DNA of 64,000 nt, taken from contig JACQXK010000001.1 of NCBI GenBank assembly GCA_016208765.1, positions 192,365-256,364 on the forward strand, given 5' to 3'. A model generated the notes under the pieces. That model was not told the origin of the DNA. It worked only from the letters and a program-made list of their open reading frames with translations, and did no database searches. Every line of letters starts with the position of its first letter. Within the stretch, counting starts at the first letter, position 1. A program made the translations under genes and the position numbers. Shown in pieces: positions 5,674 through 53,158 of this stretch. The DNA is from Candidatus Omnitrophota bacterium. Lineage in GTDB: Bacteria > Omnitrophota > Gorgyraeia > Gygaellales > Profunditerraquicolaceae.

Positions 5674-6672
5674 ATGAAAAATAAGATTACTGAAATACCG
5701 GTAAGGGGTGAAATTGCCATTTATCAGACTAAAGACAAGAAAGTCCAGCTGGAAGTTAAGCTGGAGCAGGAAATGGTTTGGCTTTCACAAGAGCAGATAG
5801 CGAATCTTTTCAAAACTGAACGAAGCGTTATTACTAAGCATCTCGGCAATATCTTCTGTTCCAATGAATTAGGAGAGAAAAGCAATGTGCATTTTTTGCA
5901 CATTCCCTTTTCGGATAAACCGGTAAAATTTTACAATCTTGATGTGATAATTTCAGTTGGGTACAGGGTTAATTCGTCTCGTGCTACACAGTTTCGTATC
6001 TGGGCTACAAATGTCCTGAAGCGGCATTTGATTGATGGTTATACCATTAATGAGAAACGCTTGAAACAGCAGACCCAAAAACTTGAAGCTTTACAGAAAG
6101 CAGTAAAGCTAATAAGCAGTATGAAGGATCGCAAGCAGCTTGAATATAAGGAAGCCATGGGGCTGCTTGAAGTAATCAGCGATTATAGCTACGCACTTGG
6201 GCTTTTAGATGATTATGATTATAAGCGGCTAAAGATAACCAAAACTTCAAAAGAAGAAAAGTTTATTTTAAGCTACGAATTGGCAATAGAAGCTGTAAAT
6301 AAGCTCAAAGACAGAATTGGTAGTTCAGATCTTTTTGGCACAGAGCGTGATAAATCATTTAAGAGTTCGGTATCTTCAATCTATCAAACGTTTGACAGGA
6401 AAGATTTATATCCAAGCATTGAAGAGAAGGCAGCTAATTTGCTTTATTTCATTGTTAAAAATCATTCTTTTGTTGATGGGAACAAACGAATCGCTGCTTC
6501 AATATTTTTGTGGTTCTTAGAGAATAATGGTATTCTGTATAAAGAAGACGGCTCAAAGCGCATCGCCGATAATGCATTAGTCGCTTTGACTCTGATGATT
6601 GCAGAAAGTAAGCCCAGTGAGCGAGATATTATCGTTACGCTGGTTGTGAATTTGATAAACAGGAATAATTAA
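5674..6672 (+). CDS. RhuM-family protein with a C-terminal Doc-type Fic domain.
   Basis: The N-terminal region matches the RhuM virulence-protein family (…VISVGYRVNSSRATQFRIWATNVLKRHLIDGY…). The C-terminus has HSFVDGNKRIAA, i.e. the Doc-type HxFx(D/N)(A/G)NKR motif rather than the AMPylating GNGR motif. Confidence 0.75.
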   Translation: MKNKITEIPVRGEIAIYQTKDKKVQLEVKLEQEMVWLSQEQIANLFKTERSVITKHLGNIFCSNELGEKSNVHFLHIPFSDKPVKFYNLDVIISVGYRVNSSRATQFRIWATNVLKRHLIDGYTINEKRLKQQTQKLEALQKAVKLISSMKDRKQLEYKEAMGLLEVISDYSYALGLLDDYDYKRLKITKTSKEEKFILSYELAIEAVNKLKDRIGSSDLFGTERDKSFKSSVSSIYQTFDRKDLYPSIEEKAANLLYFIVKNHSFVDGNKRIAASIFLWFLENNGILYKEDGSKRIADNALVALTLMIAESKPSERDIIVTLVVNLINRNN

Positions 6673-6821
6673 AAACAAGTTTTATTAAGGTTATGAGGGA
6701 TAGAATTTTTAATTAGACATAAGTATTGTTTCCCCGGAATTATCAATGCGTTACCATACAAAAATAATTATATTTGTTCCGTAACTTTAATAATTACAGG
6801 TAGTTTAGGAAAGCGTCATAT

Positions 6822-7964
6822 ATGCTGAAAACAGGTTTTTTATTGGGTGCTGGATTTTCTAAATATGGAGGAATGCCACTATCTTGTGATTTTGTTATAC
6901 AAGCCCAAAACATACTGGATAATAGGCTTGAAAGATCATATATACCTTCGCGTGAGCCTAAAAACTTGCAGAGTCTTGTTAGATTTAAAGATTTCGTTTC
7001 AGATGAGAAAGGAAGAGAGATTAACCATATTGAAGAAATCATTAAGTTGTCTGATCAATACCGGCTTACTAAAGATTGGGACAATATTGATAAAGAAGTT
7101 AGAGATGCAATTTATGAGATATTGATTGCAGCGCCTTTTATCATGTATTTAAAAGATAAAAATGAGTTATATAAAATGTTTGATATTTATTTAAGATTTT
7201 TGTTAATTGTTGCAGATTCCGAAGCTATGATTGCAACATTGAATTATGATCCTCTCCTGGAGCTTTTGTTACACACAGCAGCAATGTCAATAACACCGAA
7301 TAGCCAGCTATTTCATAAATTCGCTGAAATTGTTAGTTTTAATTATGGAATTGGAGATTTTTCATACCGACCTTTATGGGGTTCTTCTTCTAATATAGAT
7401 AGAGTAGATATATTATATTTTAAATTGCATGGAGCTACTAATTGGGAAGGTTGTGATCAACACGGATTAACAGAGGTTTGCGATCCACTAAAAACTAGGG
7501 CAATTGGGCGCTGTAGAGAGTGCAACATGCCAGCAAAACCATTTATTATTTATCCAGTTGAGGAAAAGAAATTAAATAGTCAGTTATCAGCATTGTGGGA
7601 TACCGCTTTTGGAGCATTAATGCAAGTGGAACAGATTGTTATAATTGGATGCCGATTCAATGAAACAGACAAAGATATATTTAAAAATGTTAACGAATTA
7701 ATTAGTAACAATAAAAGACTTGTAATTGTTGATCCGCAAGGCAGGCAAATTAAAGAAAGAATTGCCAAGCTAAATGAAAATGTTGTATACATCGATAATG
7801 GGAATGGCGAAGGAGCGGTATTTGAAGATATTTTCTGTGATGGTAAAACAGTAGCAAACGAAAATTTTCAAGAAATCACTAACTTAAGATTACGTAAAGA
7901 TGTGCAATATTTTCGAAACGAACAACCTTCTATGCCTTTTTTTGAAGAACCAGTCGCAACATGA
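6822..7964 (+). CDS. Standalone SIR2-like (SIR2_2/PF13289-type) domain protein; candidate NADase defence effector.
   Basis: N-terminal 'FLLGAGFS' glycine-rich motif typical of the SIR2_2 family, with a downstream 'YFKLHGATNW' histidine motif. 380 aa with no other recognisable domain. Confidence 0.65.
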   Translation: MLKTGFLLGAGFSKYGGMPLSCDFVIQAQNILDNRLERSYIPSREPKNLQSLVRFKDFVSDEKGREINHIEEIIKLSDQYRLTKDWDNIDKEVRDAIYEILIAAPFIMYLKDKNELYKMFDIYLRFLLIVADSEAMIATLNYDPLLELLLHTAAMSITPNSQLFHKFAEIVSFNYGIGDFSYRPLWGSSSNIDRVDILYFKLHGATNWEGCDQHGLTEVCDPLKTRAIGRCRECNMPAKPFIIYPVEEKKLNSQLSALWDTAFGALMQVEQIVIIGCRFNETDKDIFKNVNELISNNKRLVIVDPQGRQIKERIAKLNENVVYIDNGNGEGAVFEDIFCDGKTVANENFQEITNLRLRKDVQYFRNEQPSMPFFEEPVAT

Positions 7965-8203
7965 GCAGTTATCTTAATTGTATTGGTTAGATTGACCAGA
8001 CGGATATGTAGAGTTAGAGGTTTGTTAGTTATTAGATAATAATAAGTTATGAAAAATAAATATAGTATATACATGCGTACCTTTGGATGGCCGTTGGTTA
8101 CAGTGGCTAGGGATGGCACTGGATGTGTTAAAGAGGGTAAATGGCTTGGAGTGAAAGGGTTGCGGGAAAACAAGTCTGAAAACGAAAATCTTATTAATGT
8201 TGT

Positions 8204-8209
8204 ATAATG
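8204..8209 (+). promoter_or_regulatory. Extended -10 element (TGtTATAAT) upstream of the giant NTPase gene, followed by a (GTAAT)x3 micro-repeat.
   Basis: TG at 8201-8202 and TATAAT at 8204-8209; gtaatgtaatgtaatg lies immediately downstream. Assigned by pattern only. Confidence 0.35.
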
Positions 8210-8248
8210 TAATGTAATGTTGACCAGGGAAAATTAAACAAACAATAA

Positions 8249-11200
8249 TTGATAGCTATGCAAGAAGTAAATTGGAACAACTTTAAAGCAAAGTTTAACG
8301 GTAAAGAGCAAAAATCTTTCGAGTGGTTTTGCTATCTCTTGTTTTGTAAAGAATTCAAGAAGAACACCGGAATATCCAGGTATAAAAACCAAGCAGGGAT
8401 AGAAGCCGAGCCTATTGAACATAATGGTCAAATGATAGGGTTTCAGGTGAAATTCTATGAAACAAGGATTAGTGAGAATAAAGACGACATAAAAAAGTCT
8501 ATTGAAACGGCAAAGAGAAAGAATGGCAACCTTAACAAAATCATATTTTATATAAATCAGGAATTCTCAGAAAGTAGCAAAAAAGATAAGAAAGACCCCG
8601 CATACAAAATCGACATAGAAAATTATGCTAAGTTTCTTGGCGTGGAAATAGATTGGAGAAGCAGAAGCTTTTTTGACTCTTCATTTGTCTGTCAGGACAA
8701 TGCCGTAATAGCACAACACTTTTTTGACTTAGGCAAGAGCGCGATTGATTTCTTAAATGAGTTAACTCAGCATACCGAAGCTATCCTAGCGGCAATAAAT
8801 TCAAAAATAAACCTCAGAAATAATGAAATAAAAATAGATACGGCACAGAATATAAAAGTGCTACAAGATGTTCTGAATACTTCTCCCATGGCTATTTTAA
8901 GTGGAGAGGCAGGGGTAGGAAAAACCGCTCTCATCAAAGATTTTTATGACTCAAGCAAAGACAAGGCTCCTTTTTACATCTTTAAAGCTGCCGAATTCTG
9001 CATACCCAACATAAATCAACTTTTCGCCAATTACGGATCATTTACCCTGTCAGATTTCATGAGAGAACACCAAGATTTCCAAGAAAAATACATAGTAATC
9101 GATTCTGCTGAAAAGTTATCTGACATTGAATATAAGGAAGTTTTTCAGGAATTTTTATCCACCCTGCAAATTAACAAATGGAAAGTCATATTTACAACAA
9201 GACATAGCTACTTGGACGATTTAAGATTTCAGTTTATTGAGGTTTACCATGTCCGGTGTCAGCCAGTAAATATCGAAAATCTTACCTCGGCACAACTTGT
9301 CGAGATTTCAAAAAAATATGGTTTTGATCTGCCAAGGAATGACAGGTTGCTTGAGCTTTTGCGAACACCTTTCTATTTAAATGAATATCTACAAAATTAT
9401 GATAGTTTAGGAAACGCAATAAGTTTTTCTGATTTTAAAAATTTGTTGTGGAACAAGCAGATATCCAAAACTTCATATCAGAAGGATAACATACATATAA
9501 AACGGGAAAAATGCTTCCTGGAGATTGCTCATAAGAGGGCTGCTGAGGGCAGCTTTTTTGTAAAGGCTGATGGGTGTGATGATGAAGTTTTACGGGCTCT
9601 TGAGAACGATGAAATTATAAAATATAACTCCAATGCGGGCGGTTACTTTATTACACATGACATTTATGAAGAGTGGGCATTGGATAACATAATTGAAAGA
9701 ACGTTTTTGAATTCAAAAGATTACAGGGATTTCTTAAGGGGGATAGGAAGTTCTTTGCCAGTTCGTCGAGCTTTTCGGAATTGGCTCTCAGAAAAACTAT
9801 ATAATAATGGAAATGAAGTAAAAGCATTTATTGAATTTGCAATCAATGATGATACGATTGAGAGCTATTGGAAGGACGAAATCTACGTATCAATCTTGCT
9901 ATCCGATTACGCAGAGGTCTTTTTTGACATATTCAAAGACAAGCTTTTAGAAAATAACCAAACTCTCCTGGTGAAAATTATTTTTTTGCTGAGAATCGGT
10001 TGTAAAGAGATTGATGAAGACTTGCTTAATATATTTGGTATTCAAAAAACGGCGTGGAGCGCATTGAAAACTATCTTCACGAAACCAAAAGGCCGTGGAT
10101 GGAAATGCACCATCAATTTTATACATGAGCATAAAGGCGCATTGGGATTACAAAGAATGAATATAATCCTCCCCATGCTTGATGATTGGAATAACAAAAA
10201 TAAAGGGGGCGAAACTACAAAGCAAGCGAGCCAGATAGCGTTATATTATTATAACGAACTCACAAAACAACAATATTATCATATCTCTGACCGCAAAGAG
10301 GGGCAATTAATCAGAGTCATTTTGCAAGGCTCATCAGAAATTAAGGATGAGTTGAAAACTATCTTAGATGAAGTTATCTCTAACAAAGCGGTTGATTACA
10401 GGGATAGGTACTACGTTCTTATTAAGCCAATACTAACATCACTTACGGATTCCTTCGAGGTGGTTAAAGCTCTGCCGAATTATGTAATAAGATTAGCAGA
10501 TATTTTTTGGTTCCAAAATCCCAATGAATTAGATGAGGATTATAGATATTCAAGAAGAATGGACATGGAGGATTACTTTTGTATTTCATCAAGGCATAAC
10601 GACTTTTTACCAGCAAGTGCATTCCAAACACCTATATTCCAGCTTTTAAAGATATCTCCCCAAGAGACAACGGACTTTATTTTATCGTTTACCAACAAGA
10701 CGGTTGAATGCTATGCGAAATCTAAGCTTGATGGTGAAATAGAACAGGTAGACGTTTTTGTCGATAATAATAAAGCGATAAAGCAATATATAAGCAACAG
10801 GCTTTGGTGCATGTACCGTGGAACCCAAGTTTCTCCATACCTTCTTGAGTCTATACATATGGCTCTCGAAAAATGGCTTCTGGACGTCGCCAAATCAGCA
10901 TCAAAAGAGGTTATAGAAAGCCGGTGCCTGTATCTTATAAAAAACTCTAAATCTGCTTCAATAACCGCAGTTGTTTCAAGCGTGGTTTTAGCTCAACCGT
11001 CAAAGCTTTTCAATGTTGCAAAAATACTTTTCCAAACAAAACAATTCTTCCTTTACGACACGGCAAGGATGATGCTTGACCAATCACACAAAGGTCAATT
11101 ATTAGGGTTGAGAAATCTCTTTCCTCGTAACTACGATAATGAAATCTATGAAGATGAAAGAATAAAAGCTTGTGATGATAGCCACAGAAAATACGCATTA

Positions 11201-13009
11201 GAGCATTTAGCTCTTAATTATCAGTTATTCAGGACAGAAGAAGAAAGAGAGGATGAGGTTAAAGATAGACAAGAAATCATATGGGCCATATTCGATAAAT
11301 ATTATGCAGAGCTCCCAGACAAATCAACAGAAACGGAATCCGACAAGACATGGAAGCTATATTTGGCAAGAATGGATAGAAGAAAGATGAGTCCAGAAAT
11401 TGAGAAGACAGATGAAGGCACTTTCATTAAATTCAATCCCGAAATCGACGCCGATTTAAAAAAACATAGTGAAGATGCTCTGCAAGAAATTTCCGAGAAG
11501 ATGAAGTATACAGGTTTACGGCTATGGGCAGATAGCAGATTCAGAGGAGAAGAAGAGACCTACAAAAAATATCCTCAGTATGAAACCGAACCAAAACGTG
11601 TAATTACAGAAGCAAAGGAAATATTTGAAGGGCTAAAGACCACAAAAAGGGAAGAATTTTCCCTGTTTAACCGTTCAATACCCGCATATGCTTGCTCTGT
11701 TTTAATGCGTGATTTTTTTGGCAAACTTGATTCAGATGAAAAAGAATTCTGCAAAGAAGTAATTATTGGGTATGCAGCTATACCGTTAATGACAGAACAG
11801 TATATGTACCAGATATCCGATGGCACGGAAGCCGCAATTGCTCTTTTACCCAATCTTCTGGAGCATTTTCAAAAAGATAAGAAAGATATCAAAATGTTGT
11901 TGTTTAGATTGCTGCTCATCCCGTCCCGAGAAATATCAACATTTGTTGCAAGAGGCATTTTGCATAAGTTATGGAAAATCAGTTTTAATGATGCAAACTC
12001 TATGTTTCTAGGATATCTTTTGCTTTCACCCAAATATTATGCGCTTATCGATGAAATACGAGAAGAAAATTACAAAAGAAAAAATCACGGCGATTTAAGA
12101 ACACAGGTTTCTAAAGCATTTGAAGAAAAGTATAGAAAGGAACTTGAGAGGGTTAACAAGAACGGCATTTCTTATGATGAATTAGATGGCTTAGAAAAGA
12201 TAGATTTAGAAATTCTAAAATCGGCGTTTGAGTTATTGCCTTTGGAAACAACTGACAACGATCATAAGAAATTCTTGAGCGCAATCTTTCCCATTTTCGC
12301 AACGAAAATCTTACAGGATGATCGTGAGGACAGAATTGACTATACCCTAAGGCATAGATTCTTAGAAAAATTTGCATATTTTACCTTAAACCTCCCGAAA
12401 AAAGAAATAATGATATATTTGCGACCTTTTATCGATAATTTTCACAACTCAAGAGAAATGTCTGAATTCTTCCAAGAATTTATATTTGTAGAAGATAGGC
12501 TGTCCAAATATGACGAATTCTGGACAATATGGAATGCTTTTTATGAGAAGGTGGCAGATTTATGTAAGAGCAAGAGCAGTTATTATGCAAAAGAAGTCAT
12601 AAGTAGCTATCTCTTAGCAGGGATACCCTGGAATGAAAAAGCAAAAGAATGGCATACGCTAAAAGAACGAGAAAAGATATTCTATAAAAAGGTAGCTGAG
12701 GAAATGGGGCAGCACCCAGCGGTGTTGTATTCCATTTCCAAGGTTCTAAACGGCATCGGAAGCAATTTTATAGAAGACGGATTAACCTGGATAAGCTATA
12801 TCTTAGAAAACAACAAACAGCTAAGCTCGGAAGAATTAGAAACAAATACCATTTTTTACATAGAGACCTTTCTTCGACGATATATTCTAAATAATCGTCT
12901 ACATATTAGGAGGTCACTATTGATTAAGAAGCAACTTATCGTTGTTTTAAATTTCTTGATAGGAAGAGGTTCGATCGTAGGGTATTTATTACGAGATGAT
13001 ATTTTATAA
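8249..13009 (+). CDS. Giant STAND-like P-loop NTPase (1586 aa) with an N-terminal Mrr-like PD-(D/E)xK nuclease-fold domain and a long helical C-terminus; resembles the Avs (antiviral STAND) architecture.
   Basis: N-terminus FEWFCYLLFCKEF…GIEAEP…QMIGFQVKFYE follows the Mrr_cat pattern (FE.L…GID…I.QCK.Y). Walker A is [12 protein letters not shown] near aa 220 and Walker B is KYIVIDSAEKL near aa 280. More than 1200 aa of non-repetitive, helix-rich sequence follows. Confidence 0.6.
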   Translation: MIAMQEVNWNNFKAKFNGKEQKSFEWFCYLLFCKEFKKNTGISRYKNQAGIEAEPIEHNGQMIGFQVKFYETRISENKDDIKKSIETAKRKNGNLNKIIFYINQEFSESSKKDKKDPAYKIDIENYAKFLGVEIDWRSRSFFDSSFVCQDNAVIAQHFFDLGKSAIDFLNELTQHTEAILAAINSKINLRNNEIKIDTAQNIKVLQDVLNTSPMAILSGEAGVGKTALIKDFYDSSKDKAPFYIFKAAEFCIPNINQLFANYGSFTLSDFMREHQDFQEKYIVIDSAEKLSDIEYKEVFQEFLSTLQINKWKVIFTTRHSYLDDLRFQFIEVYHVRCQPVNIENLTSAQLVEISKKYGFDLPRNDRLLELLRTPFYLNEYLQNYDSLGNAISFSDFKNLLWNKQISKTSYQKDNIHIKREKCFLEIAHKRAAEGSFFVKADGCDDEVLRALENDEIIKYNSNAGGYFITHDIYEEWALDNIIERTFLNSKDYRDFLRGIGSSLPVRRAFRNWLSEKLYNNGNEVKAFIEFAINDDTIESYWKDEIYVSILLSDYAEVFFDIFKDKLLENNQTLLVKIIFLLRIGCKEIDEDLLNIFGIQKTAWSALKTIFTKPKGRGWKCTINFIHEHKGALGLQRMNIILPMLDDWNNKNKGGETTKQASQIALYYYNELTKQQYYHISDRKEGQLIRVILQGSSEIKDELKTILDEVISNKAVDYRDRYYVLIKPILTSLTDSFEVVKALPNYVIRLADIFWFQNPNELDEDYRYSRRMDMEDYFCISSRHNDFLPASAFQTPIFQLLKISPQETTDFILSFTNKTVECYAKSKLDGEIEQVDVFVDNNKAIKQYISNRLWCMYRGTQVSPYLLESIHMALEKWLLDVAKSASKEVIESRCLYLIKNSKSASITAVVSSVVLAQPSKLFNVAKILFQTKQFFLYDTARMMLDQSHKGQLLGLRNLFPRNYDNEIYEDERIKACDDSHRKYALEHLALNYQLFRTEEEREDEVKDRQEIIWAIFDKYYAELPDKSTETESDKTWKLYLARMDRRKMSPEIEKTDEGTFIKFNPEIDADLKKHSEDALQEISEKMKYTGLRLWADSRFRGEEETYKKYPQYETEPKRVITEAKEIFEGLKTTKREEFSLFNRSIPAYACSVLMRDFFGKLDSDEKEFCKEVIIGYAAIPLMTEQYMYQISDGTEAAIALLPNLLEHFQKDKKDIKMLLFRLLLIPSREISTFVARGILHKLWKISFNDANSMFLGYLLLSPKYYALIDEIREENYKRKNHGDLRTQVSKAFEEKYRKELERVNKNGISYDELDGLEKIDLEILKSAFELLPLETTDNDHKKFLSAIFPIFATKILQDDREDRIDYTLRHRFLEKFAYFTLNLPKKEIMIYLRPFIDNFHNSREMSEFFQEFIFVEDRLSKYDEFWTIWNAFYEKVADLCKSKSSYYAKEVISSYLLAGIPWNEKAKEWHTLKEREKIFYKKVAEEMGQHPAVLYSISKVLNGIGSNFIEDGLTWISYILENNKQLSSEELETNTIFYIETFLRRYILNNRLHIRRSLLIKKQLIVVLNFLIGRGSIVGYLLRDDIL

Positions 13010-13032
13010 GAAGGATAGCAAGAGGAGGATAT

Positions 13033-13695
13033 ATGCCGTATAAATTATCTACTGAACAAATTCGTGAATTAGTTAACCAGCCAGAAACCGGAATGGGTTA
13101 TCAGTATGTCGAAGCCTCTATGAGTAATTCTTCTATCTTGAAAGGAGTTGTGCTTAATTCAGAAGTTTTTATCCCTGAAGAAAAAATCGAAAAGATTATG
13201 GGTAAGCGATTTATAACCTACTCAGCAGTTCTTAATGAAGCAGAAAGTCCCGGATACATTAGAAAAATCAACGTCATTGGGCGAGATCGATTGCATCTCG
13301 GAGAAACAAAGTATTTTGCAAAATCTGCTGGAGTTCCTGCTTCGCAGGCCGTTATTTCTTTAACAGAAAAAAATCAAATTTTTAAAAGGTTCTCGCCTTA
13401 TAGAAATGATCATCGTATTAATGAAGATGGTAGTTTAAAATTAGGTGCATATGCCACTACAGAAGCCGATGCACGTAATGTTAGAACAGGAATAGATGCA
13501 ACAAATAGGTATGCATTACTGAGTGATGAGCCGGCAATATATGTTTTTACCATTCAACCGCCTGAAAAAACTTCTGTTCGCGTTGGAACAGTTGAACCTG
13601 CAAATGGCAAGCCTGGTGGCGGTGTTGAGGTTTTATTTGAAAACGGCTCTCCCAAAAACACTGTGACTGGACCCAACATAATTCCAGCAAATTAA
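13033..13695 (+). CDS. Hypothetical protein (220 aa) with an N-terminal 'PETGMGYQ' domain.
   Basis: Starts 24 bp after the giant NTPase stop, with GAGGAGG as RBS. Its N-terminal roughly 55 aa are paralogous to the next ORF. No recognised family. Confidence 0.6.
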   Translation: MPYKLSTEQIRELVNQPETGMGYQYVEASMSNSSILKGVVLNSEVFIPEEKIEKIMGKRFITYSAVLNEAESPGYIRKINVIGRDRLHLGETKYFAKSAGVPASQAVISLTEKNQIFKRFSPYRNDHRINEDGSLKLGAYATTEADARNVRTGIDATNRYALLSDEPAIYVFTIQPPEKTSVRVGTVEPANGKPGGGVEVLFENGSPKNTVTGPNIIPAN

Positions 13696-13914
13696 ATGAA
13701 ACTAAAATTAAATAAATACTGGACGGAGCACCTTCTTAAATACCCTGAAACAGGGATGGGGTATCAACGGGTTGATGTCATATTGAAATCTGGCCAGGTA
13801 ATCAAAAATATTGTTGTTTTGAACGCCGAAGACTTGGTGCTTTCTGACGAATATAAAGATTTAAGATTAGATGAAATTAAGGATTTACATGTTCTGATTA
13901 AAGGGAAAAGATAA
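13696..13914 (+). CDS. Hypothetical small protein (72 aa); a standalone paralog of the N-terminal 'PETGMGYQ' domain of the upstream gene.
   Basis: Starts 1 nt after the upstream stop. The alignment KYPETGMGYQRVDVILKSGQVIKNIVVLNAEDLV versus NQPETGMGYQYVEASMSNSSILKGVVLNSEVFI shows clear homology. Confidence 0.55.
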   Translation: MKLKLNKYWTEHLLKYPETGMGYQRVDVILKSGQVIKNIVVLNAEDLVLSDEYKDLRLDEIKDLHVLIKGKR

Positions 13915-14043
13915 AAATCGGCATAAGTTCTCAAGCGGAGGTGTTTATGAACGGTTTTAAAAAAGGATCTGGTTCTTTGTGATAAGGATGGCAAAGTTAT
14001 CAAAGTTTATCCATATGGCAGTGAAGAGCAGCTTAGATATGAA

Positions 14044-14361
14044 ATGGTTCTGGAAATTCTATTTGAGGCAGACAAGACAGCTCTAGAGAAACTCATAGAG
14101 AAAAGAGAGCATAAAGAACAGGTAATAGATAGTCAGATAGAAGAATGCGATAAGAAGGTTTTTCATAAATGTACCAAACGATCAGCCAAAAGATACAATA
14201 TGACCCAAACAGCAAGAATTTTAGGAGTTCATCGCGAGACATTATATTACTGGATCAAGAAAGGTTGGCTTAAGCCGAAGCGAGACTACAGGAATTATCC
14301 GGTTTTTACAGTTTTAGACATAGAAGAGCTGATAAAGTGGAAAGATACAATAAAATGTTGA
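14044..14361 (+). CDS. Small HTH DNA-binding protein (Xis/AlpA/MerR-like HTH_17) with a coiled N-terminal half.
   Basis: C-terminal MTQTARILGVHRETLYYWIKKGWLKPKR is a typical excisionase/MerR-type helix-turn-helix. No integrase gene is nearby. Confidence 0.6.
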   Translation: MVLEILFEADKTALEKLIEKREHKEQVIDSQIEECDKKVFHKCTKRSAKRYNMTQTARILGVHRETLYYWIKKGWLKPKRDYRNYPVFTVLDIEELIKWKDTIKC

Positions 14362-14500
14362 AATTATCTGGAAACCGCAGAAATAGATTTAACAGATTGA
14401 TTGACAAAGAGTTAACGGTATTTATGCATCTCGTACATTCATCGGTTTAGACAGTTTTATGCAAACCTCAAAACAAGGATATTAAAGTACACAACTAACT

Positions 14501-15724
14501 ATGAAACAAGAAGTTACATCAAAAAAAGTGTTCATTCGCACGCTGGGCTGTCAAATGAACGTCCGGGATTCGGAGGTAATTGGAGGGTTGCTTGCGAGAG
14601 CAGGGTATGAGATTACCGACGATGAACAGCAGGCGGATATTGTGATTTTTAATACCTGTTCTGTGCGTCAGATGGCTGAAGATAGGGTATGGAGCGCGGT
14701 GGGAAATGCTGTAAATAGAGAAAAGCATAGGGACAGTCCCCAAAAAGCGGGGACAGTCCCTATAATTGGTATTACAGGCTGTATGGCAAATAATTACCGG
14801 GAGGCAATTTTTGAGAAAGCGCCGGCTGTTGATTTTGTGGTCGGCACTGCGGATATTGGAAAGCTACCGGAAATCATAAAAGAAATCCAAAAACATAAAG
14901 GCAGCCTCAATGAAAAGAAGATTTATGAAACAGACGCAGAATTTCGCGAGGATGAAATTTATCACACTGGATTCAGGCTTGATAAAGAACATGCGTTTGT
15001 GGTAATCTCGGAGGGATGTGAGAATTTTTGTTCTTATTGTGTGGTGCCTTATGTGCGGGGAAAGTTGCGCTCGCGTGATCCTGAGGATATTTTAAAAGAA
15101 ATAAAAGCAGATGTTGATGCCGGGATTTCTAAGATTACTCTTTTGGGCCAGAATGTGAATGCGTATCATTGGGTAGATAAAAACAGGGACAGTCCCCAAA
15201 AACCGGGGACAGTCCCTGTTTTTACTTTTGATTTTGTAAAGCTCCTGACAATGGTTAATAGAATAAGCGGTTTAAAAGAGTTTACTTTTGTTACCTCACA
15301 CCCCAAGGATACATCAATAGAATTATTTAAGGCAATGGCTGAGTTGGATAAATTAAGAAAATACATGCATCTTCCGGTGCAGTCTGGTTCGGATAGGATC
15401 TTAAAAATGATGAATCGCAGGTATACCAGGGAAAATTATTTAAATTTAGCAAAGAGTTATCGTGAGATTGTCAGGGGTGGTGAGCTTACTACTGATATTA
15501 TTGTGGGTTTTCCCGGTGAGACAGAAAAAGATTTTCAGGATACCTTTGATTTGGTAAAAGAAGCGGAGTTTAATGCTGGTTTTATTTTTAAATATTCACC
15601 TCGGCCGCATACTGAGGCTTTAAAATTGCCTGATGATGTGTCAAGAGAGGAAAAAGAAAGGCGCCACGCCTTAATTTTAGAACTGCAGAAGAAAATATCA
15701 AAGAAGCTAAGAAAGAAAATATGA
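14501..15724 (+). CDS. miaB: tRNA-2-methylthio-N6-dimethylallyladenosine synthase (radical SAM methylthiotransferase). It carries two in-frame 11-aa palindromic-element insertions.
   Basis: VFIRTLGCQMN MTTase N-domain, CxxxCxxC radical-SAM cluster (CENFCSYCVVP) and a C-terminal TRAM region. Insertions 'RDSPQKAGTVP' and 'RDSPQKPGTVP' correspond to the DNA elements at 14729-14761 and 15185-15217. Confidence 0.9.
   Translation: MKQEVTSKKVFIRTLGCQMNVRDSEVIGGLLARAGYEITDDEQQADIVIFNTCSVRQMAEDRVWSAVGNAVNREKHRDSPQKAGTVPIIGITGCMANNYREAIFEKAPAVDFVVGTADIGKLPEIIKEIQKHKGSLNEKKIYETDAEFREDEIYHTGFRLDKEHAFVVISEGCENFCSYCVVPYVRGKLRSRDPEDILKEIKADVDAGISKITLLGQNVNAYHWVDKNRDSPQKPGTVPVFTFDFVKLLTMVNRISGLKEFTFVTSHPKDTSIELFKAMAELDKLRKYMHLPVQSGSDRILKMMNRRYTRENYLNLAKSYREIVRGGELTTDIIVGFPGETEKDFQDTFDLVKEAEFNAGFIFKYSPRPHTEALKLPDDVSREEKERRHALILELQKKISKKLRKKI
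14729..14761. repeat. 33-bp palindromic element AGGGACAGTCCCC-AAAAAGC-GGGGACAGTCCCT, inserted in-frame in miaB.
   Basis: Two copies of the near-palindrome GGGACAGTCCC separated by 7 nt. The same element recurs at 15185-15217 and, in reverse orientation, at 32625-32653 and 32828-32856. Confidence 0.85.
15185..15217. repeat. Second copy of the 33-bp palindromic element (AGGGACAGTCCCC-AAAAACC-GGGGACAGTCCCT), in-frame in miaB.
   Basis: Differs from the first copy by one spacer nucleotide. It is flanked by AAAAC/GTTTT, which extends the palindrome. Confidence 0.85.
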
Positions 15725-16617
15725 GTATTGCTGTTAAAAAGAAAATTATATTTTTAGTAGGGCCTACGGCAGCGGGTAAGTCAGAGATAGCAGTAAGGCT
15801 TGCCAGAAAAATTAACGCCGAAATTATTTCCTGTGATTCTATGCAGATTTATAAAGGAATGGATATTTTAACTGCAAAGCCTGCGCTTGCTTTACTTAGG
15901 AAGATCCCGCATCATTTAATCGGGATGATCGATCCTTCTAAAGAATATAATGTTTCAAGGTATCGCAGGGACGCGTTACGTATAATAAAAGAAATCTTTA
16001 AGAAAAATAAAACACCACTTTTTGTCGGAGGAACCGGGCTTTATATGAGTATTTTGCTTGATGGAATCTTTAAGGCTAAGGGAGAGAGCAAAAAAATAAG
16101 AAAGCAGCTTTTTGAAGAGGCTAAGAGAATCACAAGCCCTGAGTTGCACGATAGGTTAAAGAAAATTGACCCTCAGGCAGCAGAGAAAATTCATCCTAAT
16201 GATACAAGGCGGATTGTGCGCGCTTTGGAAGTTTTCTTGGTTACGGGTAAACCTATTTCAGTTTTACAGAAAGAACGCATTGGGCTTGCAGATGAATATG
16301 ATGTAGAGGTTTATTGCCTTAGTATGCCGCTTGATAAGCTTTATGAAAAGATTAACAAGCGAGTGGATAAAATGTTTAAGCTTGGGTTGGTTAATGAAGT
16401 AAAGAAACTATTAAAAAAGAAACTAAGTAAAACTGCCCAATTTGCCATTGGCATTAGAGAGTTAAAGGGTTATTTTGATGGTGATTGCAGCTTGGAGCAG
16501 GTAAAAGAAATGATCAAGTATAACAGCCGTCAGTACGCTCGTCGGCAATTGACTTGGTTCAGGAAGGATAAGCGGATAAAGTGGGTTGAGGCTGATGCCA
16601 TTACTCAGAAAGGTTAA
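15721..16617 (+). CDS. miaA: tRNA dimethylallyltransferase.
   Basis: P-loop LVGPTAAGKSEIAV and the overall MiaA pattern. It overlaps the miaB stop by 4 nt. Confidence 0.9.
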   Translation: MSIAVKKKIIFLVGPTAAGKSEIAVRLARKINAEIISCDSMQIYKGMDILTAKPALALLRKIPHHLIGMIDPSKEYNVSRYRRDALRIIKEIFKKNKTPLFVGGTGLYMSILLDGIFKAKGESKKIRKQLFEEAKRITSPELHDRLKKIDPQAAEKIHPNDTRRIVRALEVFLVTGKPISVLQKERIGLADEYDVEVYCLSMPLDKLYEKINKRVDKMFKLGLVNEVKKLLKKKLSKTAQFAIGIRELKGYFDGDCSLEQVKEMIKYNSRQYARRQLTWFRKDKRIKWVEADAITQKG

Positions 16618-31559: not shown

Positions 31560-31639
31560 AGAAACCCCTTTCTTTTTACCCCTGCTTTACCCTTGTTTCA
31601 CTCTCCCTGTATATTATACTTATCTTACCTATTATATTT

Positions 31640-31722
31640 AGGGACGGTTCTGATTTGCGCTTAAAAGTGTCCCTTACTATTTAAAGCAGGGACAGTTTTA
31701 ACCGTGTTTCAGAACCGTCCCT
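31640..31722. repeat. 83-bp nested palindrome in the GGGAC family: AGGGACGGTTCTGA…AAAAGTGTCCCT-N13-AGGGACAGTTTT…TCAGAACCGTCCCT.
   Basis: Outer 14-bp perfect inverted repeat and inner roughly 12-bp inverted repeat. It lies 25 bp upstream of the giant gene start. Confidence 0.8.
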
Positions 31723-31746
31723 AACTTACACACTTTTCACTACCTT

Positions 31747-34700
31747 ATGACTAAAAGACTCTCTAAACTAATTGCCTTACTTTTAAGCTTTCTACTGCTA
31801 ATAGAGCAAGCAGGCTTTGCAGCTGGTGGTGCCATAGACCTATCAAGCCAATTCTCTAAGCTTGCCTCAGGCATATCTACTACTCTATCATCTGCTACTA
31901 CAGCTACCTTTCGTCCCATACACCTAAGATACCTGGAGTATCTACCTAAAGATAACAGCTTTAAGCTGCTCTTAGATAAAGGTAGCGTAGATACGTCATT
32001 GCGAGGCGCTTCACAGAGTAGGATAACGAAGCAATCTCAAAACCAGATTGCTTCGTCGCTCGTTTCGCTCGCTCCTCGCAATGACGATTTACACACCTTA
32101 CACCCCATATCGCAAGCTGAACTACAAGACCTCCAATCCACCACCCAAGACCTAATGAACTACTTCTACATAGGCCTCACACTACCTAATGATTCCTTCT
32201 GGGTTAACCTAAGACCTGCCCCGTTGATGACCGAAGGTCAATCTACGGGGACTGACTCACCCAACAACATCATAGACTCCTACCTATCTAAAACAGATAT
32301 AGGCAGAATTCTTCTTGAAGCTGATGTACAGCTAAAGAAAGACACCTCAAGCTACACTAACCCAGCTACTCCTATAGGAAAGCAATACTGGAATAAGCTC
32401 TACAAGAAAGCCTCTGATCTCTTTGGAACAGACCAGATTACTATCCCTACCCTAACAAGACCATGGATAGTTCCAGGAGAGATAATCATAAGAGAAAGTC
32501 TGTCACCTGTTGCCAGTGTTGGACAGGAGACAGGTGACAGGAGACAGGCGACACATCCCTCTGCCTACATCTACAAAGCTACCCTTAAAGTAATGCTTGA
32601 AGAAGACTACTTGAAGGGACTGTCCCCGAAGGGGACTGTCCCTGGTTCAACAGACTACTCCTTCACTGATCCGCGCCTTAAAGAACTCAACTCCTACTCT
32701 ACAGAACTAATCAAAGAACTAATCATCCCCAAACTGACTAAAGAGGTAAACTCCTCTAAAAGATACTCTAAGCTAAGACAGGTATACTACTCTCTAATAC
32801 TTGCTCAATGGTTTAAGTCAAGGCAGAAGGGACTGTCCCCGAAGGGAACTGTCCCTGATTTGATTGACTCTAAAAATCTCTCTAACCTAACCTCTAAAAC
32901 TACTTGGGATAAAGCTACCTACTTCAACCAATACCAACAATCCTTCACTAAAGGAGAATACAATACCAAGGAAACAGTCTATACACCTTCTGGACAGGTG
33001 ATCAGGAGTTATATGAGTGGAGGGATTACCTTGATGCAAGGGAGTTTTCCTATTCAGCAAGGGGCTACTTTTGAAAGCCAAGCCGGAAGCCCGATTAAAG
33101 TAGTCCCTGCCAACAGCCCTATTCCAGAAACTCTAAAAAATATCGCAGTAGAAATTAGTTGTTCGGTTTTAAATTCAGACAATTCTACAGTACAGTTAAT
33201 TCCAGAAGTATCATCTGAGAAAATGTATACGCCAGCCAGTTCTTCAGTAGTAAATCACGAAACTAGCGTAGGGCAACTTGTGCTTTTAGAAAAAAGAGAA
33301 TTCCGCTGGCTTCCGGAAGATATTACTAAAGTTGAACAACTGATTCCTGAATTGAAGAAATTTAGCCGAGGCGCAGAGGGTGTTGTGAAGCAGGAGGTAG
33401 CAATCTCACTTTTAGCGGGGCTGATTAGAAAGGAAAACTCAAAATCAATCGCAGCTTTTGAGGATTTAGCTGGACAGATAAAAGAATTTATTGCTCCGAA
33501 ACAAAGGCTTAGCTTAAAGTATGTATCGCTGAAGATTATAAATGCCGCAGCGCAAAATGGAAATCCGGTGGCATTAAAGCTAATCAAGGAATCAACAAGT
33601 GATTTAATAAAAACAATTATTGCGATTGAGCAAAAAGGAGATGTTTATGAAGGGCTTCAAGATATGGTGTTGGATGAGATGCTGGCGTTGTTGATTAGAG
33701 GCGAAAATAACGCATTATTAGAAATAGCAACAGCTTTATCCCAAGGATTAAGGGAAAATCTTCCATCAAGCCAGGATATAAATGAGATCAAGGGAATTCG
33801 TCAGCTCTTTAAACAAGCTCTCAATATGTCAGGTCTTAAGGTAATATTTAAGCTCCGTGAGATCGCAGCAATCCGCGCAACCAATAGTCTCATTCAGGCA
33901 TTGGAGCTTGATACGGAAGACATAATTTACGGTTACTGCGAAGAGCTAAATAAGAAGATGGTGCAGGAAGCAATTGAAAAAGGAGAGCTTCCTCCCGGCT
34001 ATTCTACTAAAAAATATACAGATTCGGCGGATCAGCATCAAAAGGATATCGTAGTAATATTTAATGATAATCAGTCTTTAGGCAGATCAGCCGACAAATT
34101 ACAATTACCTTATTACATTTTTAAATACGGGCTGCCAGAACCATTACCGCAGGAAATTGTAGCTAGAATGCGGCAAGAGATGAATATAGGAAAGCGCAAA
34201 GTGATTGTCGCCGGGTCAGTTGATCGGCAAGAAATAGGCGTTTTAATGGCTGCTTATAATAGTTTATACCGCAATCTCCCTGTAGAACAGCGTCCGTTAT
34301 TAGTTTTGGCTCCTCGGGATATAATCGATTTAGATGATGTGGATTTAAGTCAGCCAGATGCGCCTCTTGTGCTTAAGCAGGGAGAATTGTTAAAATCTTA
34401 TGCCTTAGCCGATGTTTGTATTGTAGGTAGCGATCGTAATATTTTAGAGCCATCAAGCCAGAGAAAATTGGTGTTGTATTTCTCGGGTTATTGGCGCAGC
34501 AATCAGCAAGCGAAAGATATGCTAGTTTCTTCGGGCGGAGCAATAGAGTTTAATCAAGATAATCTCTCTCTAGCGGTAAATAATCCGCAGATAACGCAAG
34601 AATTGGGAGAGAAAGGTTTTAAGATAGTGCAAGAATTCAAAAATAAGATTATTCCACAAACAACGGATATCGCGGCAATCTTCGGATTGTCTTTGTTGAT

Positions 34701-52820: not shown

Positions 52821-53084
52821 TTTGCTCTAAATTGCCTCAAAATTGCCTCAAATTTCACTTGTCGCGCGAGCCTTCCTGTGTTAAACTATTAAATCTGAAT
52901 TATTTGCTAAGCCCCTATGCAGCACTAATTTTAATTTTTTGTGTTTTAAAGGCATAAATTAGGGCCCATAGCTCAGCCCCGACGTGCTCATTTCATTCGC
53001 GGTCGGGGTTCCGACCGAGCGAAAGCGAGCGTCGGGATTGGTTAAAAGGTTTTCGCTATGGGTAGCGCAGATTTAAGAAGATTA

Positions 53085-53158
53085 GGGCCCATAGCTCAGT
53101 TGGTCAGAGCAGGTGACTCATAATCACTTGGTCCGGGGTTCAAGTCCCTGTGGGCCCA
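53085..53158 (+). tRNA. tRNA with anticodon CAT. It is an elongator Met or a lysidine-modified Ile2 tRNA; it is not an initiator type.
   Basis: Cloverleaf folded by hand: acceptor GGGCCCA/TGGGCCC, D-arm GCTC-AGTTGGTCA-GAGC, anticodon arm GGTGA-CTCATAA-TCACT, T-arm CGGGG-TTCAAGT-CCCTG, discriminator A. Confidence 0.85.

Follow-up and report, generated by a model that had tools for sequence, protein, structure and literature searches.

How does a palindromic DNA repeat come to lie, twice and in frame, within the coding sequence of a tRNA-modification gene? This question is raised by the miaB gene in a 64,000-nucleotide stretch of a Candidatus Omnitrophota genome (contig JACQXK010000001.1, positions 192,365 to 256,364; the whole stretch is referred to here as the window). 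A preliminary description of this DNA had reported that two 33-bp copies of the doublet AGGGACAGTCCCC-N7-GGGGACAGTCCCT are inserted into miaB without loss of frame, and our analysis confirms both copies (Table 1). We conclude that the inserts are probably copies of a repeat of the repetitive extragenic palindromic (REP) or REPIN type, presumably non-autonomous, which is tolerated when translated.

Translated palindromes in miaB

The 11-nt unit GGGACAGTCCC, allowing up to one mismatch, gives 15 strand-matches in the window where 0.30 are expected, and the doublet pattern gives three matches against an expectation of 0.00. Four doublets are present in the 64 kb, one of them with a mutation in one arm. 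The preliminary count of two is right for miaB but overlooked two further doublets within the reading frame of a 2014-aa protein, the second of which (copy 4) is placed 213 nt downstream of the first (copy 3).

Each miaB copy folds into a hairpin whose 13-bp stem contains a single A.A mismatch at its centre and is closed by a loop of 7 nt. Folding energies are -25.1 kcal/mol for copy 1 and -32.1 kcal/mol for copy 2 (z-scores -6.1 and -7.1), and both copies thereby show the stable hairpin, formed from a short imperfect palindrome, that is characteristic of REP and REPIN elements. The hairpin of copy 1 reaches 14727-14763. At copy 2 the flanking AAAAAC and GTTTTT lengthen the stem to give a 47-nt palindrome (15178-15224), after which comes a T-rich tract, so that the structure has a terminator-like look. 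A scan of 14400-15800 against Rfam returned sub-threshold noise, with no RNA family matched. A six-frame check found the repeat to be without a stop triplet in any frame, which is true of only 3.3% of the 33-mers in the window, and every frame encodes Gly-x-x-Pro, giving turn-like peptides.

It is the DNA and not the peptide that is conserved, because translation of one and the same repeat uses three frames and two orientations. Across lineages, equal MiaB sites carry RDSPQKAGTVP, GTVPKKRGQSP or KGQSPKSGDSP, which are three sense-frame readings of one DNA, and the reverse orientation of the repeat yields KGLSPKGTVP or RDSPLRGQSL. These comparisons of coding sequences support the view that the repeat is a palindromic element at the level of the nucleic acid rather than a protein motif. 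The opposite proposal, that RDSPQK[A/P]GTVP is a functional motif of the MiaB lineage to which the palindrome is incidental, draws on the recurrence of the peptide at both sites and in several orthologs. We regard it as highly improbable. The use of different frames and orientations places unrelated peptides at one site, which effectively refutes the proposal, and the segments are predicted to be disordered and occur neither in the closest ortholog nor in solved MiaB.

The identity of the host protein is clear. It is identical to a database protein, MiaB of a Candidatus Omnitrophica metagenome-assembled genome (MAG), matches Bacteroides MiaB in the PDB (7mjv, E = 2.7e-80) and retains the invariant cluster cysteines. 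Pfam assigns UPF0004 to residues 9-115 and Radical_SAM to residues 167-352 of the 407-aa open reading frame (ORF) but finds no TRAM domain, and the alignment to 7mjv stops at residue 390 of the 457-aa solved MiaB. The window protein therefore departs from the canonical MiaB layout of UPF0004, radical SAM and TRAM domains. The C-terminal TRAM RNA-binding domain is missing from essentially all Omnitrophota MiaB homologs (349-480 aa).

The inserts occupy residues 77-87, in the N-terminal UPF0004 domain, and residues 229-239, in the radical-SAM domain. Given these domain bounds and the lack of TRAM, they sit within domains and not, as originally proposed, in the inter-domain linkers; a linker between radical SAM and TRAM, to which the second insert had been assigned, has no counterpart in this MiaB. 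An AlphaFold model of the window protein (91 homologs as input; mean predicted local distance difference test score, pLDDT, 86.4) renders both inserts as coil, in loops 73-87 and 225-241. Insert 1 is placed between a helix (57-72) and a strand (88-93), and insert 2 between a strand (211-215) and a helix (245-253). Mean pLDDT values over 10-residue blocks are 68 and 73 at the first site and 72 and 58 at the second, with values below 50 at residues 230-232. The inserts are thus predicted to occupy disordered loops between secondary-structure elements, and the low-confidence coil of the model agrees with the loop positions anticipated for them. The designation of miaB as an essential gene is not established; both E. 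coli and Salmonella have viable miaB mutants.

Table 1. Coordinates of the repeat copies, their host genes and the MiaB insertion sites. Nucleotide positions are those of the window; amino acid positions are those of a reference MiaB.
Feature	Position	Strand	Description
Host gene miaB	14501-15724	+	407 aa; UPF0004 and radical SAM
Repeat copy 1	14729-14761	+	AGGGACAGTCCCCAAAAAGCGGGGACAGTCCCT; in frame in miaB, peptide RDSPQKAGTVP; subfamily with 7-nt A-rich spacer
Repeat copy 2	15185-15217	+	AGGGACAGTCCCCAAAAACCGGGGACAGTCCCT; in frame in miaB, peptide RDSPQKPGTVP
Nested palindrome, 87 nt	31638-31724		Intergenic, just upstream of the 2014-aa gene; -50.1 kcal/mol, z = -10.7
Second host gene, 2014 aa	31747-37791	+	Omnitrophota-specific; no Pfam match
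Repeat copy 3	32615-32643	-	Sense strand AGGGACTGTCCCCGAAGGGGACTGTCCCT; 3-nt spacer, opposite orientation; in frame in the 2014-aa ORF, peptide KGLSPKGTVP
Repeat copy 4	32828-32856	-	GGGAACTGTCCC; form of copy 3 with one arm mutation; in frame, peptide KGLSPKGTVP
MiaB site 1	aa 72-84		17 clusters; at least two kinds of junction
MiaB site B	aa 130-135		26 clusters; true linker between N-domain and radical SAM; empty in the window
MiaB site 2	aa 227-236		9 clusters

Alignment of MiaB orthologs bears out the expectation that the inserts are lineage-specific. The closest ortholog (P0002, 89% amino acid identity) is without both copies, and P0011 is empty at site 2. In the one pair that provides a filled/empty comparison, filled P0003 and empty P0011 differ at site 2 by a 45-nt block made up of the repeat and a 12-nt tail. 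The 11 added codons claimed earlier are correct for the repeat core but not for the whole indel, which measures 45 nt against the empty site of this relative. Next to the block the two sequences match exactly for at least 33 nt on one side and 40 nt on the other; overall, the two proteins are 86.5% identical and the two genes 79.6%. An AAT direct repeat is present at both borders, and this 3-nt repeat fits target-site duplication or, equally, deletion microhomology. Locus L125 (4244-5503) compared with locus L126 (289-1377) shows the same 100% identity (at least 33 nt, and 40 nt) around MiaB site 2 against 79.6% over the whole gene, which suggests either a recent recombination tract or strong local constraint.

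Peptides of the GTVP, xDSP, GQSP or GLSP type are found in 23 of 120 MiaB homologs, and decayed remnants such as RRDSSQKAGTVS and GESPSGIVP are present in other MiaB orthologs. The sharing of such peptides among orthologs from unrelated taxa had been put forward as the mark of an ancestral feature, a mark that proves ambiguous. Many Omnitrophota orthologs do carry the same or frame-shifted peptides, and at the same sites, but we read these as recurrent or persistent repeat DNA and not as an ancestral feature of the protein.

A dispersed hairpin family and a candidate transposase

Further copies of the repeat were predicted and are found, both in other genes and in other genomes. The unit of the family is a 13-nt near-palindrome, (G/A)GGGAC-W-GTCCC(C/T), usually present as a same-orientation doublet with the units 1-15 nt apart, which folds as one long hairpin. 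We searched one genome per species for doublets with spacers of 1-15 nt. More than 119 stretches have the pattern, where by our estimate chance would give about 0.06. Among the matches listed, to which the host and unit counts of this paragraph refer, the hosts include Omnitrophota, Planctomycetota, Gaiellaceae and other Actinomycetota, Aminicenantes, Kiritimatiellia, Lachnospiraceae, Novosphingobium, Patescibacteria and Saccharibacteria, and one genome often gives several repeat loci. Of 393 units, 391 have A or T as their central base, and for 353 of 391 another unit lies within 45 nt. Neighbouring units have the same central base in 185 cases and different ones in 13, a count in which the search pattern favoured sameness. 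Spacer lengths peak at 3 nt (36), 4 nt (23), 15 nt (18, tandem arrays) and 7 nt (14), and total lengths across all phyla show no enrichment for multiples of three. The genes that carry the repeat in frame include those for valyl-, methionyl- and glutamyl-tRNA synthetase (ValRS, MetRS, GluRS), GlmS, the ATP synthase gamma subunit, RmlB and glycosyltransferases.

In each doublet GGGGACAG stands at the head of the right-hand unit and, in most copies outside the window, of the left-hand unit as well; the left-hand units of the window start AGGGACAG. Among 71 distinct copies the 5' flank varies and is rich in A. Only some Planctomycetota copies are preceded by CTAC. The stem flanks beyond the core vary yet still pair (62.5%, compared with 50.5% in shuffles), and none of 500 shuffles reaches the observed value. 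This covariation could reflect selection for the hairpin or templated extension of the stem.

In some Actinomycetota, Acidobacteriota and Lachnospiraceae (L009, L011, L037, L071) the family takes the form of tandem arrays of three to five units with a 25-28-nt period. These combine the 13-nt unit with 12-15-nt spacers, sometimes with two spacer types alternating, and so are array-like rather than doublets. Transport by phages or plasmids was considered and rejected, 2.9 million viral contigs yielding one match to the repeat and 7.3 Gb of plasmid sequence yielding no exact or high-coverage match, only three weak ones (87.5% identity over 71% of the query, E = 0.7). Nor was a gene family found that is common to the motif loci, all-against-all BLAST of their 4239 ORFs giving only the ubiquitous SDR and ABC families. 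Literature searches matched neither the 11-mer in a bacterial context nor the peptide set, and those on palindromes with Omnitrophica or with the Candidate Phyla Radiation (CPR) returned nothing specific.

A link to a transposase surfaced only through a search of all fetched loci for HUH motifs. Two Planctomycetota MAGs (L053 and L077) contain 198-210-aa Y1_Tnp genes (Pfam E = 3e-15 and 8e-15) with exact repeat units on both sides, within about 100 nt, the flanking doublets of L077 being inverted in orientation. The best NCBIfam model for both enzymes is 'REP-associated tyrosine transposase' (RAYT), and the best PDB match of the L053 enzyme is E. coli TnpA-REP (4er8, E = 1.5e-4). The RAYT-like enzymes, including those of L053 and L077, have the class-2 Y---NP motif (YVDQNP, YVERNP, YIERNP). 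More distantly related hairpins border two other such genes. In L167, an Omnitrophota-type 314-kb contig that also has a repeat-bearing miaB, a RAYT-like gene lies between inverted AAATAGGGACACATCCTATTT hairpins that are identical to the unit at 12 of 15 positions, and in L081 the flanking sequence is GGGGACAYGTACC-N3-GGTACRTGTCCCC, a hairpin headed by GGGAC. The REPtron arrangement, in which a Y1/HUH gene is flanked by the same repeats, is thus found in other genomes, exactly in L053 and L077 and with related hairpins in L167 and L081.

This association fits a motif already described. Genes of the RAYT-like TIRYT group are flanked by repeats sharing GGGGWSAS, often as dimers or clusters (Di Nocera 2013, PMC3733652). 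Most TIRYTs belong to TnpA-Y1 subclass 2.1, or RAYT group 1, for which the consensus is GGGG[AT][CG]A[CG] (Quentin 2018, PMC6006769). The sequence GGGGACAG fits this consensus. An identical core in many phyla would be explained most simply if a family of enzymes had spread horizontally and conserved the motif that it recognises.

We propose that a RAYT/TIRYT-type HUH tyrosine (Y1) transposase, acting in trans, would seed the copies and perhaps keep them uniform, with single-stranded hairpin DNA of the GGGGACAGTCCCC type as its substrate. Genic copies would survive where the reading frame is kept, where frame and orientation are acceptable and where the loop tolerates extra residues, and selection would remove the rest. 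Selection may also prefer the orientation of the spacer that encodes Lys, Gln or Arg over that encoding Phe, Leu, Cys or Trp. Survival within genes would be possible because the repeat is stop-free in all frames and lands in floppy surface loops. We infer both that such an enzyme moves the copies in the window genome and the way in which its target sites would be chosen.

Local processes clearly also act on the copies, and an alternative explanation dispenses with the transposase altogether. Here palindromes arise and spread locally through template switching (quasipalindrome correction or snap-back synthesis) and gene conversion, and the hot spots are simply where a hairpin once formed. The same-gene, same-orientation pairs in the window, 456 nt and 213 nt apart, are as this model predicts, as are the two or three copies per miaB in L022, L147, L164, L174 and L179 and the tandem triplets and quadruplets. 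Often, too, the sequence downstream of a copy is the upstream flank in inverted complement, as templated stem extension would give. In P0004 the two miaB copies have a common 25-nt spacer (23 of 25 positions identical) that is not found in a third copy, in miaA. This alternative nevertheless seems decidedly unlikely as the whole explanation. The identical 13-nt core in unlinked genes, genomes and phyla needs sequence-specific propagation or recognition, and the same units border RAYT-like genes; local processes may add to transposition but cannot seed new loci.

The miaA copy of the P0004 genome (L124 9103-9150) is a doublet with a different 25-nt spacer and forms the last codons of the gene (…KKGQSPLITGKLKTGTVPVI*). 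The miaA stop lies just past the hairpin, and the repeat therefore supplies the C-terminus and possibly a terminator.

The concentration of repeats in miaB

The distribution of the repeat among genes is strikingly uneven. A metagenome-wide scan for the subfamily seen in the window, with its A-rich 7-nt spacer, returned 55 stretches holding 61 copies, 30 of them in miaB homologs. In the genome scan, miaB accounts for 2-3 of about 14 Omnitrophota matches among those listed. When we mapped the 52 repeat clusters of 35 miaB genes for which DNA was available, they fell at three sites only (Table 1), with all three frames in use and a single orientation common to 51 of the 52. The A-rich spacer is on the sense strand in every one of the 30 copies in miaB, and mostly also where the repeat lies within other genes. 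In further orthologs the same sites are filled by unrelated repeat-encoded peptides. The neighbouring gene hflX, which is of like length and divergence, provides a comparison: none of 120 HflX homologs has a signature peptide, and the standard deviation of length is 4.3 aa for HflX and 43.6 aa for MiaB.

Part of the excess may be due to ascertainment, because miaB served to define the subfamily and is itself a gene conserved throughout the phylum. Even allowing for this, tolerance alone seems insufficient to account for it. Target preference, local hopping with gene conversion or a function of the hairpins in miaB could each lie behind the concentration.

The 2014-aa protein presents a parallel case. 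Signature peptides are found in 15 of 120 members of its family, at two variable hot spots which are the sites of copies 3 and 4, and this giant-protein family behaves as MiaB does.

Several observations weigh against the REP/REPIN-like repeat and transposase that we favor. Random insertion combined with tolerance leaves unexplained both the 30 of 61 copies in miaB and the fact that paired copies within one miaB are more alike than copies elsewhere, and the original picture of random selfish insertion into permissive loops likewise fails to account for so extreme a concentration. A clear target-site rule was looked for and not found. Within a doublet the unit is repeated directly rather than inverted, and the GTAG or CGTC tag of classical REPs is absent from the 5' flanks of the 71 distinct copies. 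The L053 and L077 enzymes score 79.6 and 67.6 bits against the NCBIfam model, just under its curated cut-off of 80, and the C-terminal helix-turn-helix (HTH) typical of subclass 2.1 was not detected in the RAYT-like enzymes, even at E <= 10. The 64-kb window itself was found to contain no Y1 transposase gene or insertion sequence.

The same concentration speaks for a different explanation, in which the hairpins are selected structures of miaB or its mRNA. They might terminate or attenuate transcription within the gene in a translation-coupled way, make ribosomes pause, or bind MiaB or some other protein, the repeat having been co-opted and kept in miaB for its usefulness. The share of metagenomic copies in miaB, the contrast between 23 of 120 MiaB and none of 120 HflX homologs with signature peptides, the three fixed sites that are reused even by unrelated repeat peptides and the near-uniform orientation of the clusters would all follow. 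So would the compensatory covariation of the stem flanks and the succession of A-tract, GC stem and T-tract, which is the architecture of an intrinsic terminator. We nevertheless consider this explanation rather unlikely. Many orthologs, including P0002, are hairpin-free at these sites and others are visibly decayed; the repeat is in frame in many unrelated genes, with the giant-protein family showing the same hot-spot pattern; no Rfam family was matched; and a sense-strand terminator within its own gene would be costly. The orientation bias could equally be due to selection on the peptide, which is Lys/Gln-rich in one orientation and Phe/Leu/Cys/Trp-rich in the other. A further idea, that the hairpins mimic a tRNA anticodon stem, started from the anticodon stem of E. 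coli tRNA-Phe, which we take to be GGGGA/UCCCC. It was dropped, the loops being unlike an anticodon loop and the long hairpin being of opposite polarity.

A bolder version of the transposase hypothesis would join these strands. The GGGGAC-W-GTCCCC doublets would be the missing dispersed repeats of TIRYT/subclass 2.1 (group 1), a single hairpin family across many phyla that forms a persistent translated part of Omnitrophota and CPR housekeeping genes, with the three-site hot spot in miaB kept up since the hairpins or their turnover serve the gene, for example in sensing translation coupling or regulating expression. We offer this as a tentative possibility, well short of probable.

Other repeats are found near or among those described here. 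Tandem copies of the heptamer GACAGGN (about 4.5 copies, 32516-32545) are translated as GQETGDRRQAT in the 2014-aa ORF, their 7-nt period being no multiple of three, and L120, the closest relative, has MiaB site 2 filled by a comparable heptamer-type repeat (GGTCAC-like). The 2014-aa ORF also translates the palindromes ACGAAGCAATCT-N7-AGATTGCTTCGT, followed by ...CTCCTCGCAATGACGA (32026-32090, peptide ITKQSQNQIASSLVSLAPRNDD), and AGGGGCTACTTT...AAAGTAGTCCCT (33060-33108). Peptides of the PRNDD, IPAKAGIH and PRVKPEDD types also occur in ValRS, ATP synthase gamma and glycosyltransferase genes (L067, L072, L097), which suggests that several hairpin families are translated in the phyla concerned. 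Upstream of the 2014-aa gene, the nested palindrome of 31638-31724 has outer arms TTAGGGACGGTTCTGA / TCAGAACCGTCCCTAA and inner arms AAAAGTGTCCCT / AGGGACAGTTTT, all four of which start AGGGAC(G/A)(G/C), and is possibly a longer, REPIN-like relative of the repeat.

In the neighbourhood of miaB, the region from 5674 to 14361 encodes a Fic/RhuM protein, a SIR2/AbiH-like protein, a 1586-aa protein with a weak AAA match, a 220-aa protein of unknown function and a small MerR/excisionase-type HTH protein, and looks like a defence or mobile island. Gene content upstream of miaB differs in part in the relatives L120 and L124. A TPR/SPOR-domain gene lies directly 3' of miaB in many relatives (loci L123-L126 were examined) and is fused to miaB in P0034, P0070 and P0096. 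Elsewhere in the window (52961-53080), 16 nt from the 5' end of the tRNA-Met gene (AGGGCCCATAGCTCAG) are duplicated about 120 nt upstream of the real gene (53085-53158), with GC-rich hairpins after the copy; an integration event at this tRNA gene may have left it as a scar.

Implications and relation to known repeat systems

The selfish DNA inside proteins for which Rickettsia is known thus extends to uncultivated Omnitrophota and CPR bacteria, with an element of about 30 bp in tRNA synthetases, ATP synthase and MiaB. These translated repeats are linked to a RAYT-like Y1 transposase, as the candidate engine, via a motif previously known mainly from the flanks of transposase genes. They inflate and diversify the loops of orthologs, yield spurious small ORFs and odd peptides in the annotation of MAGs, and can mislead alignments and structure predictions. 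Their concentration in miaB poses a testable puzzle about the target choice or function of REP-like repeats.

The comparison with Rickettsia palindromic elements (RPEs) made in the preliminary description stands for behaviour but not for identity. As with RPEs, housekeeping genes carry selfish-looking palindromes in frame, where the protein fold can accommodate them, and the host gene is left undisrupted. RPEs are Rickettsia-specific elements of about 100-150 bp in ten families (PMC10969869). They are genus-bound, encode one conserved peptide per family and run to about 150 bp, whereas the window repeat is 27-47 bp long, crosses phyla and is translated in either orientation and in all three frames. 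A candidate family of mobilising enzymes can moreover be named for it, a description that sets it apart from RPEs. The chance that the Omnitrophota repeat belongs to or came from the RPE families is practically negligible.

REPs and REPINs are closer relatives. They too are short (about 20-65 nt) hairpin repeats arranged in doublets or clusters, and like them the window family is apparently dispersed, with several loci per genome in a number of MAGs; the REPtron arrangement is seen in L053 and L077; and intragenic copies have been reported. REPs have been described inside genes, including different REPs at about one site in recB (PMC3733652), and the statement that such insertions are rarely reported outside Rickettsia was therefore too strong. 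The window family differs in that it is without the GTAG/CGTC guide tetranucleotide and that its unit is itself a 13-nt palindrome, present in direct doublets. Instead of being lineage-specific its core is identical across many phyla, and the Omnitrophota copies found are for the most part translated within genes rather than extragenic.

Other known elements share single features with the repeat. The terminator-like SPRITE repeats of S. pneumoniae (PMC10969869) resemble it in combining a GC-rich hairpin with A/T tracts, giving the look of a bidirectional terminator, but the window copies are inside ORFs, and their likeness to a terminator is one of sequence. An intrinsic terminator would match the hairpin and T tract of copy 2, but all four window copies lie within ORFs and not at the end of a transcription unit. 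Miniature inverted-repeat transposable elements have terminal inverted repeats, target-site duplications and an origin from a DDE insertion sequence; here the one filled/empty pair has the 3-nt AAT repeat at its borders, which could be a target-site duplication or equally deletion microhomology, the central bases make the arms of the repeat direct rather than inverted, and no parent insertion sequence was found.

In sequence the repeat resembles the repeats of TIRYT/subclass 2.1 genes. The GGGG[AT][CG]A[CG] consensus is common to both, as are the dimers and clusters, some of them self-complementary and close together, and the patchy occurrence across phyla. No dispersed REP-like family was found next to subclass 2.1 genes (Quentin et al., PMC6006769), whereas dispersed doublets are abundant here. 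The enzymes of L053, L077 and L167 have the Y---NP motif in common with subclass 2.1 but no detected C-terminal HTH, and their assignment to it is not established. Taken together, the repeat is RPE-like in behaviour, and in kind it is a REP/REPIN-like element of the GGGG[AT][CG]A[CG] class that is tied to RAYT-like transposases.

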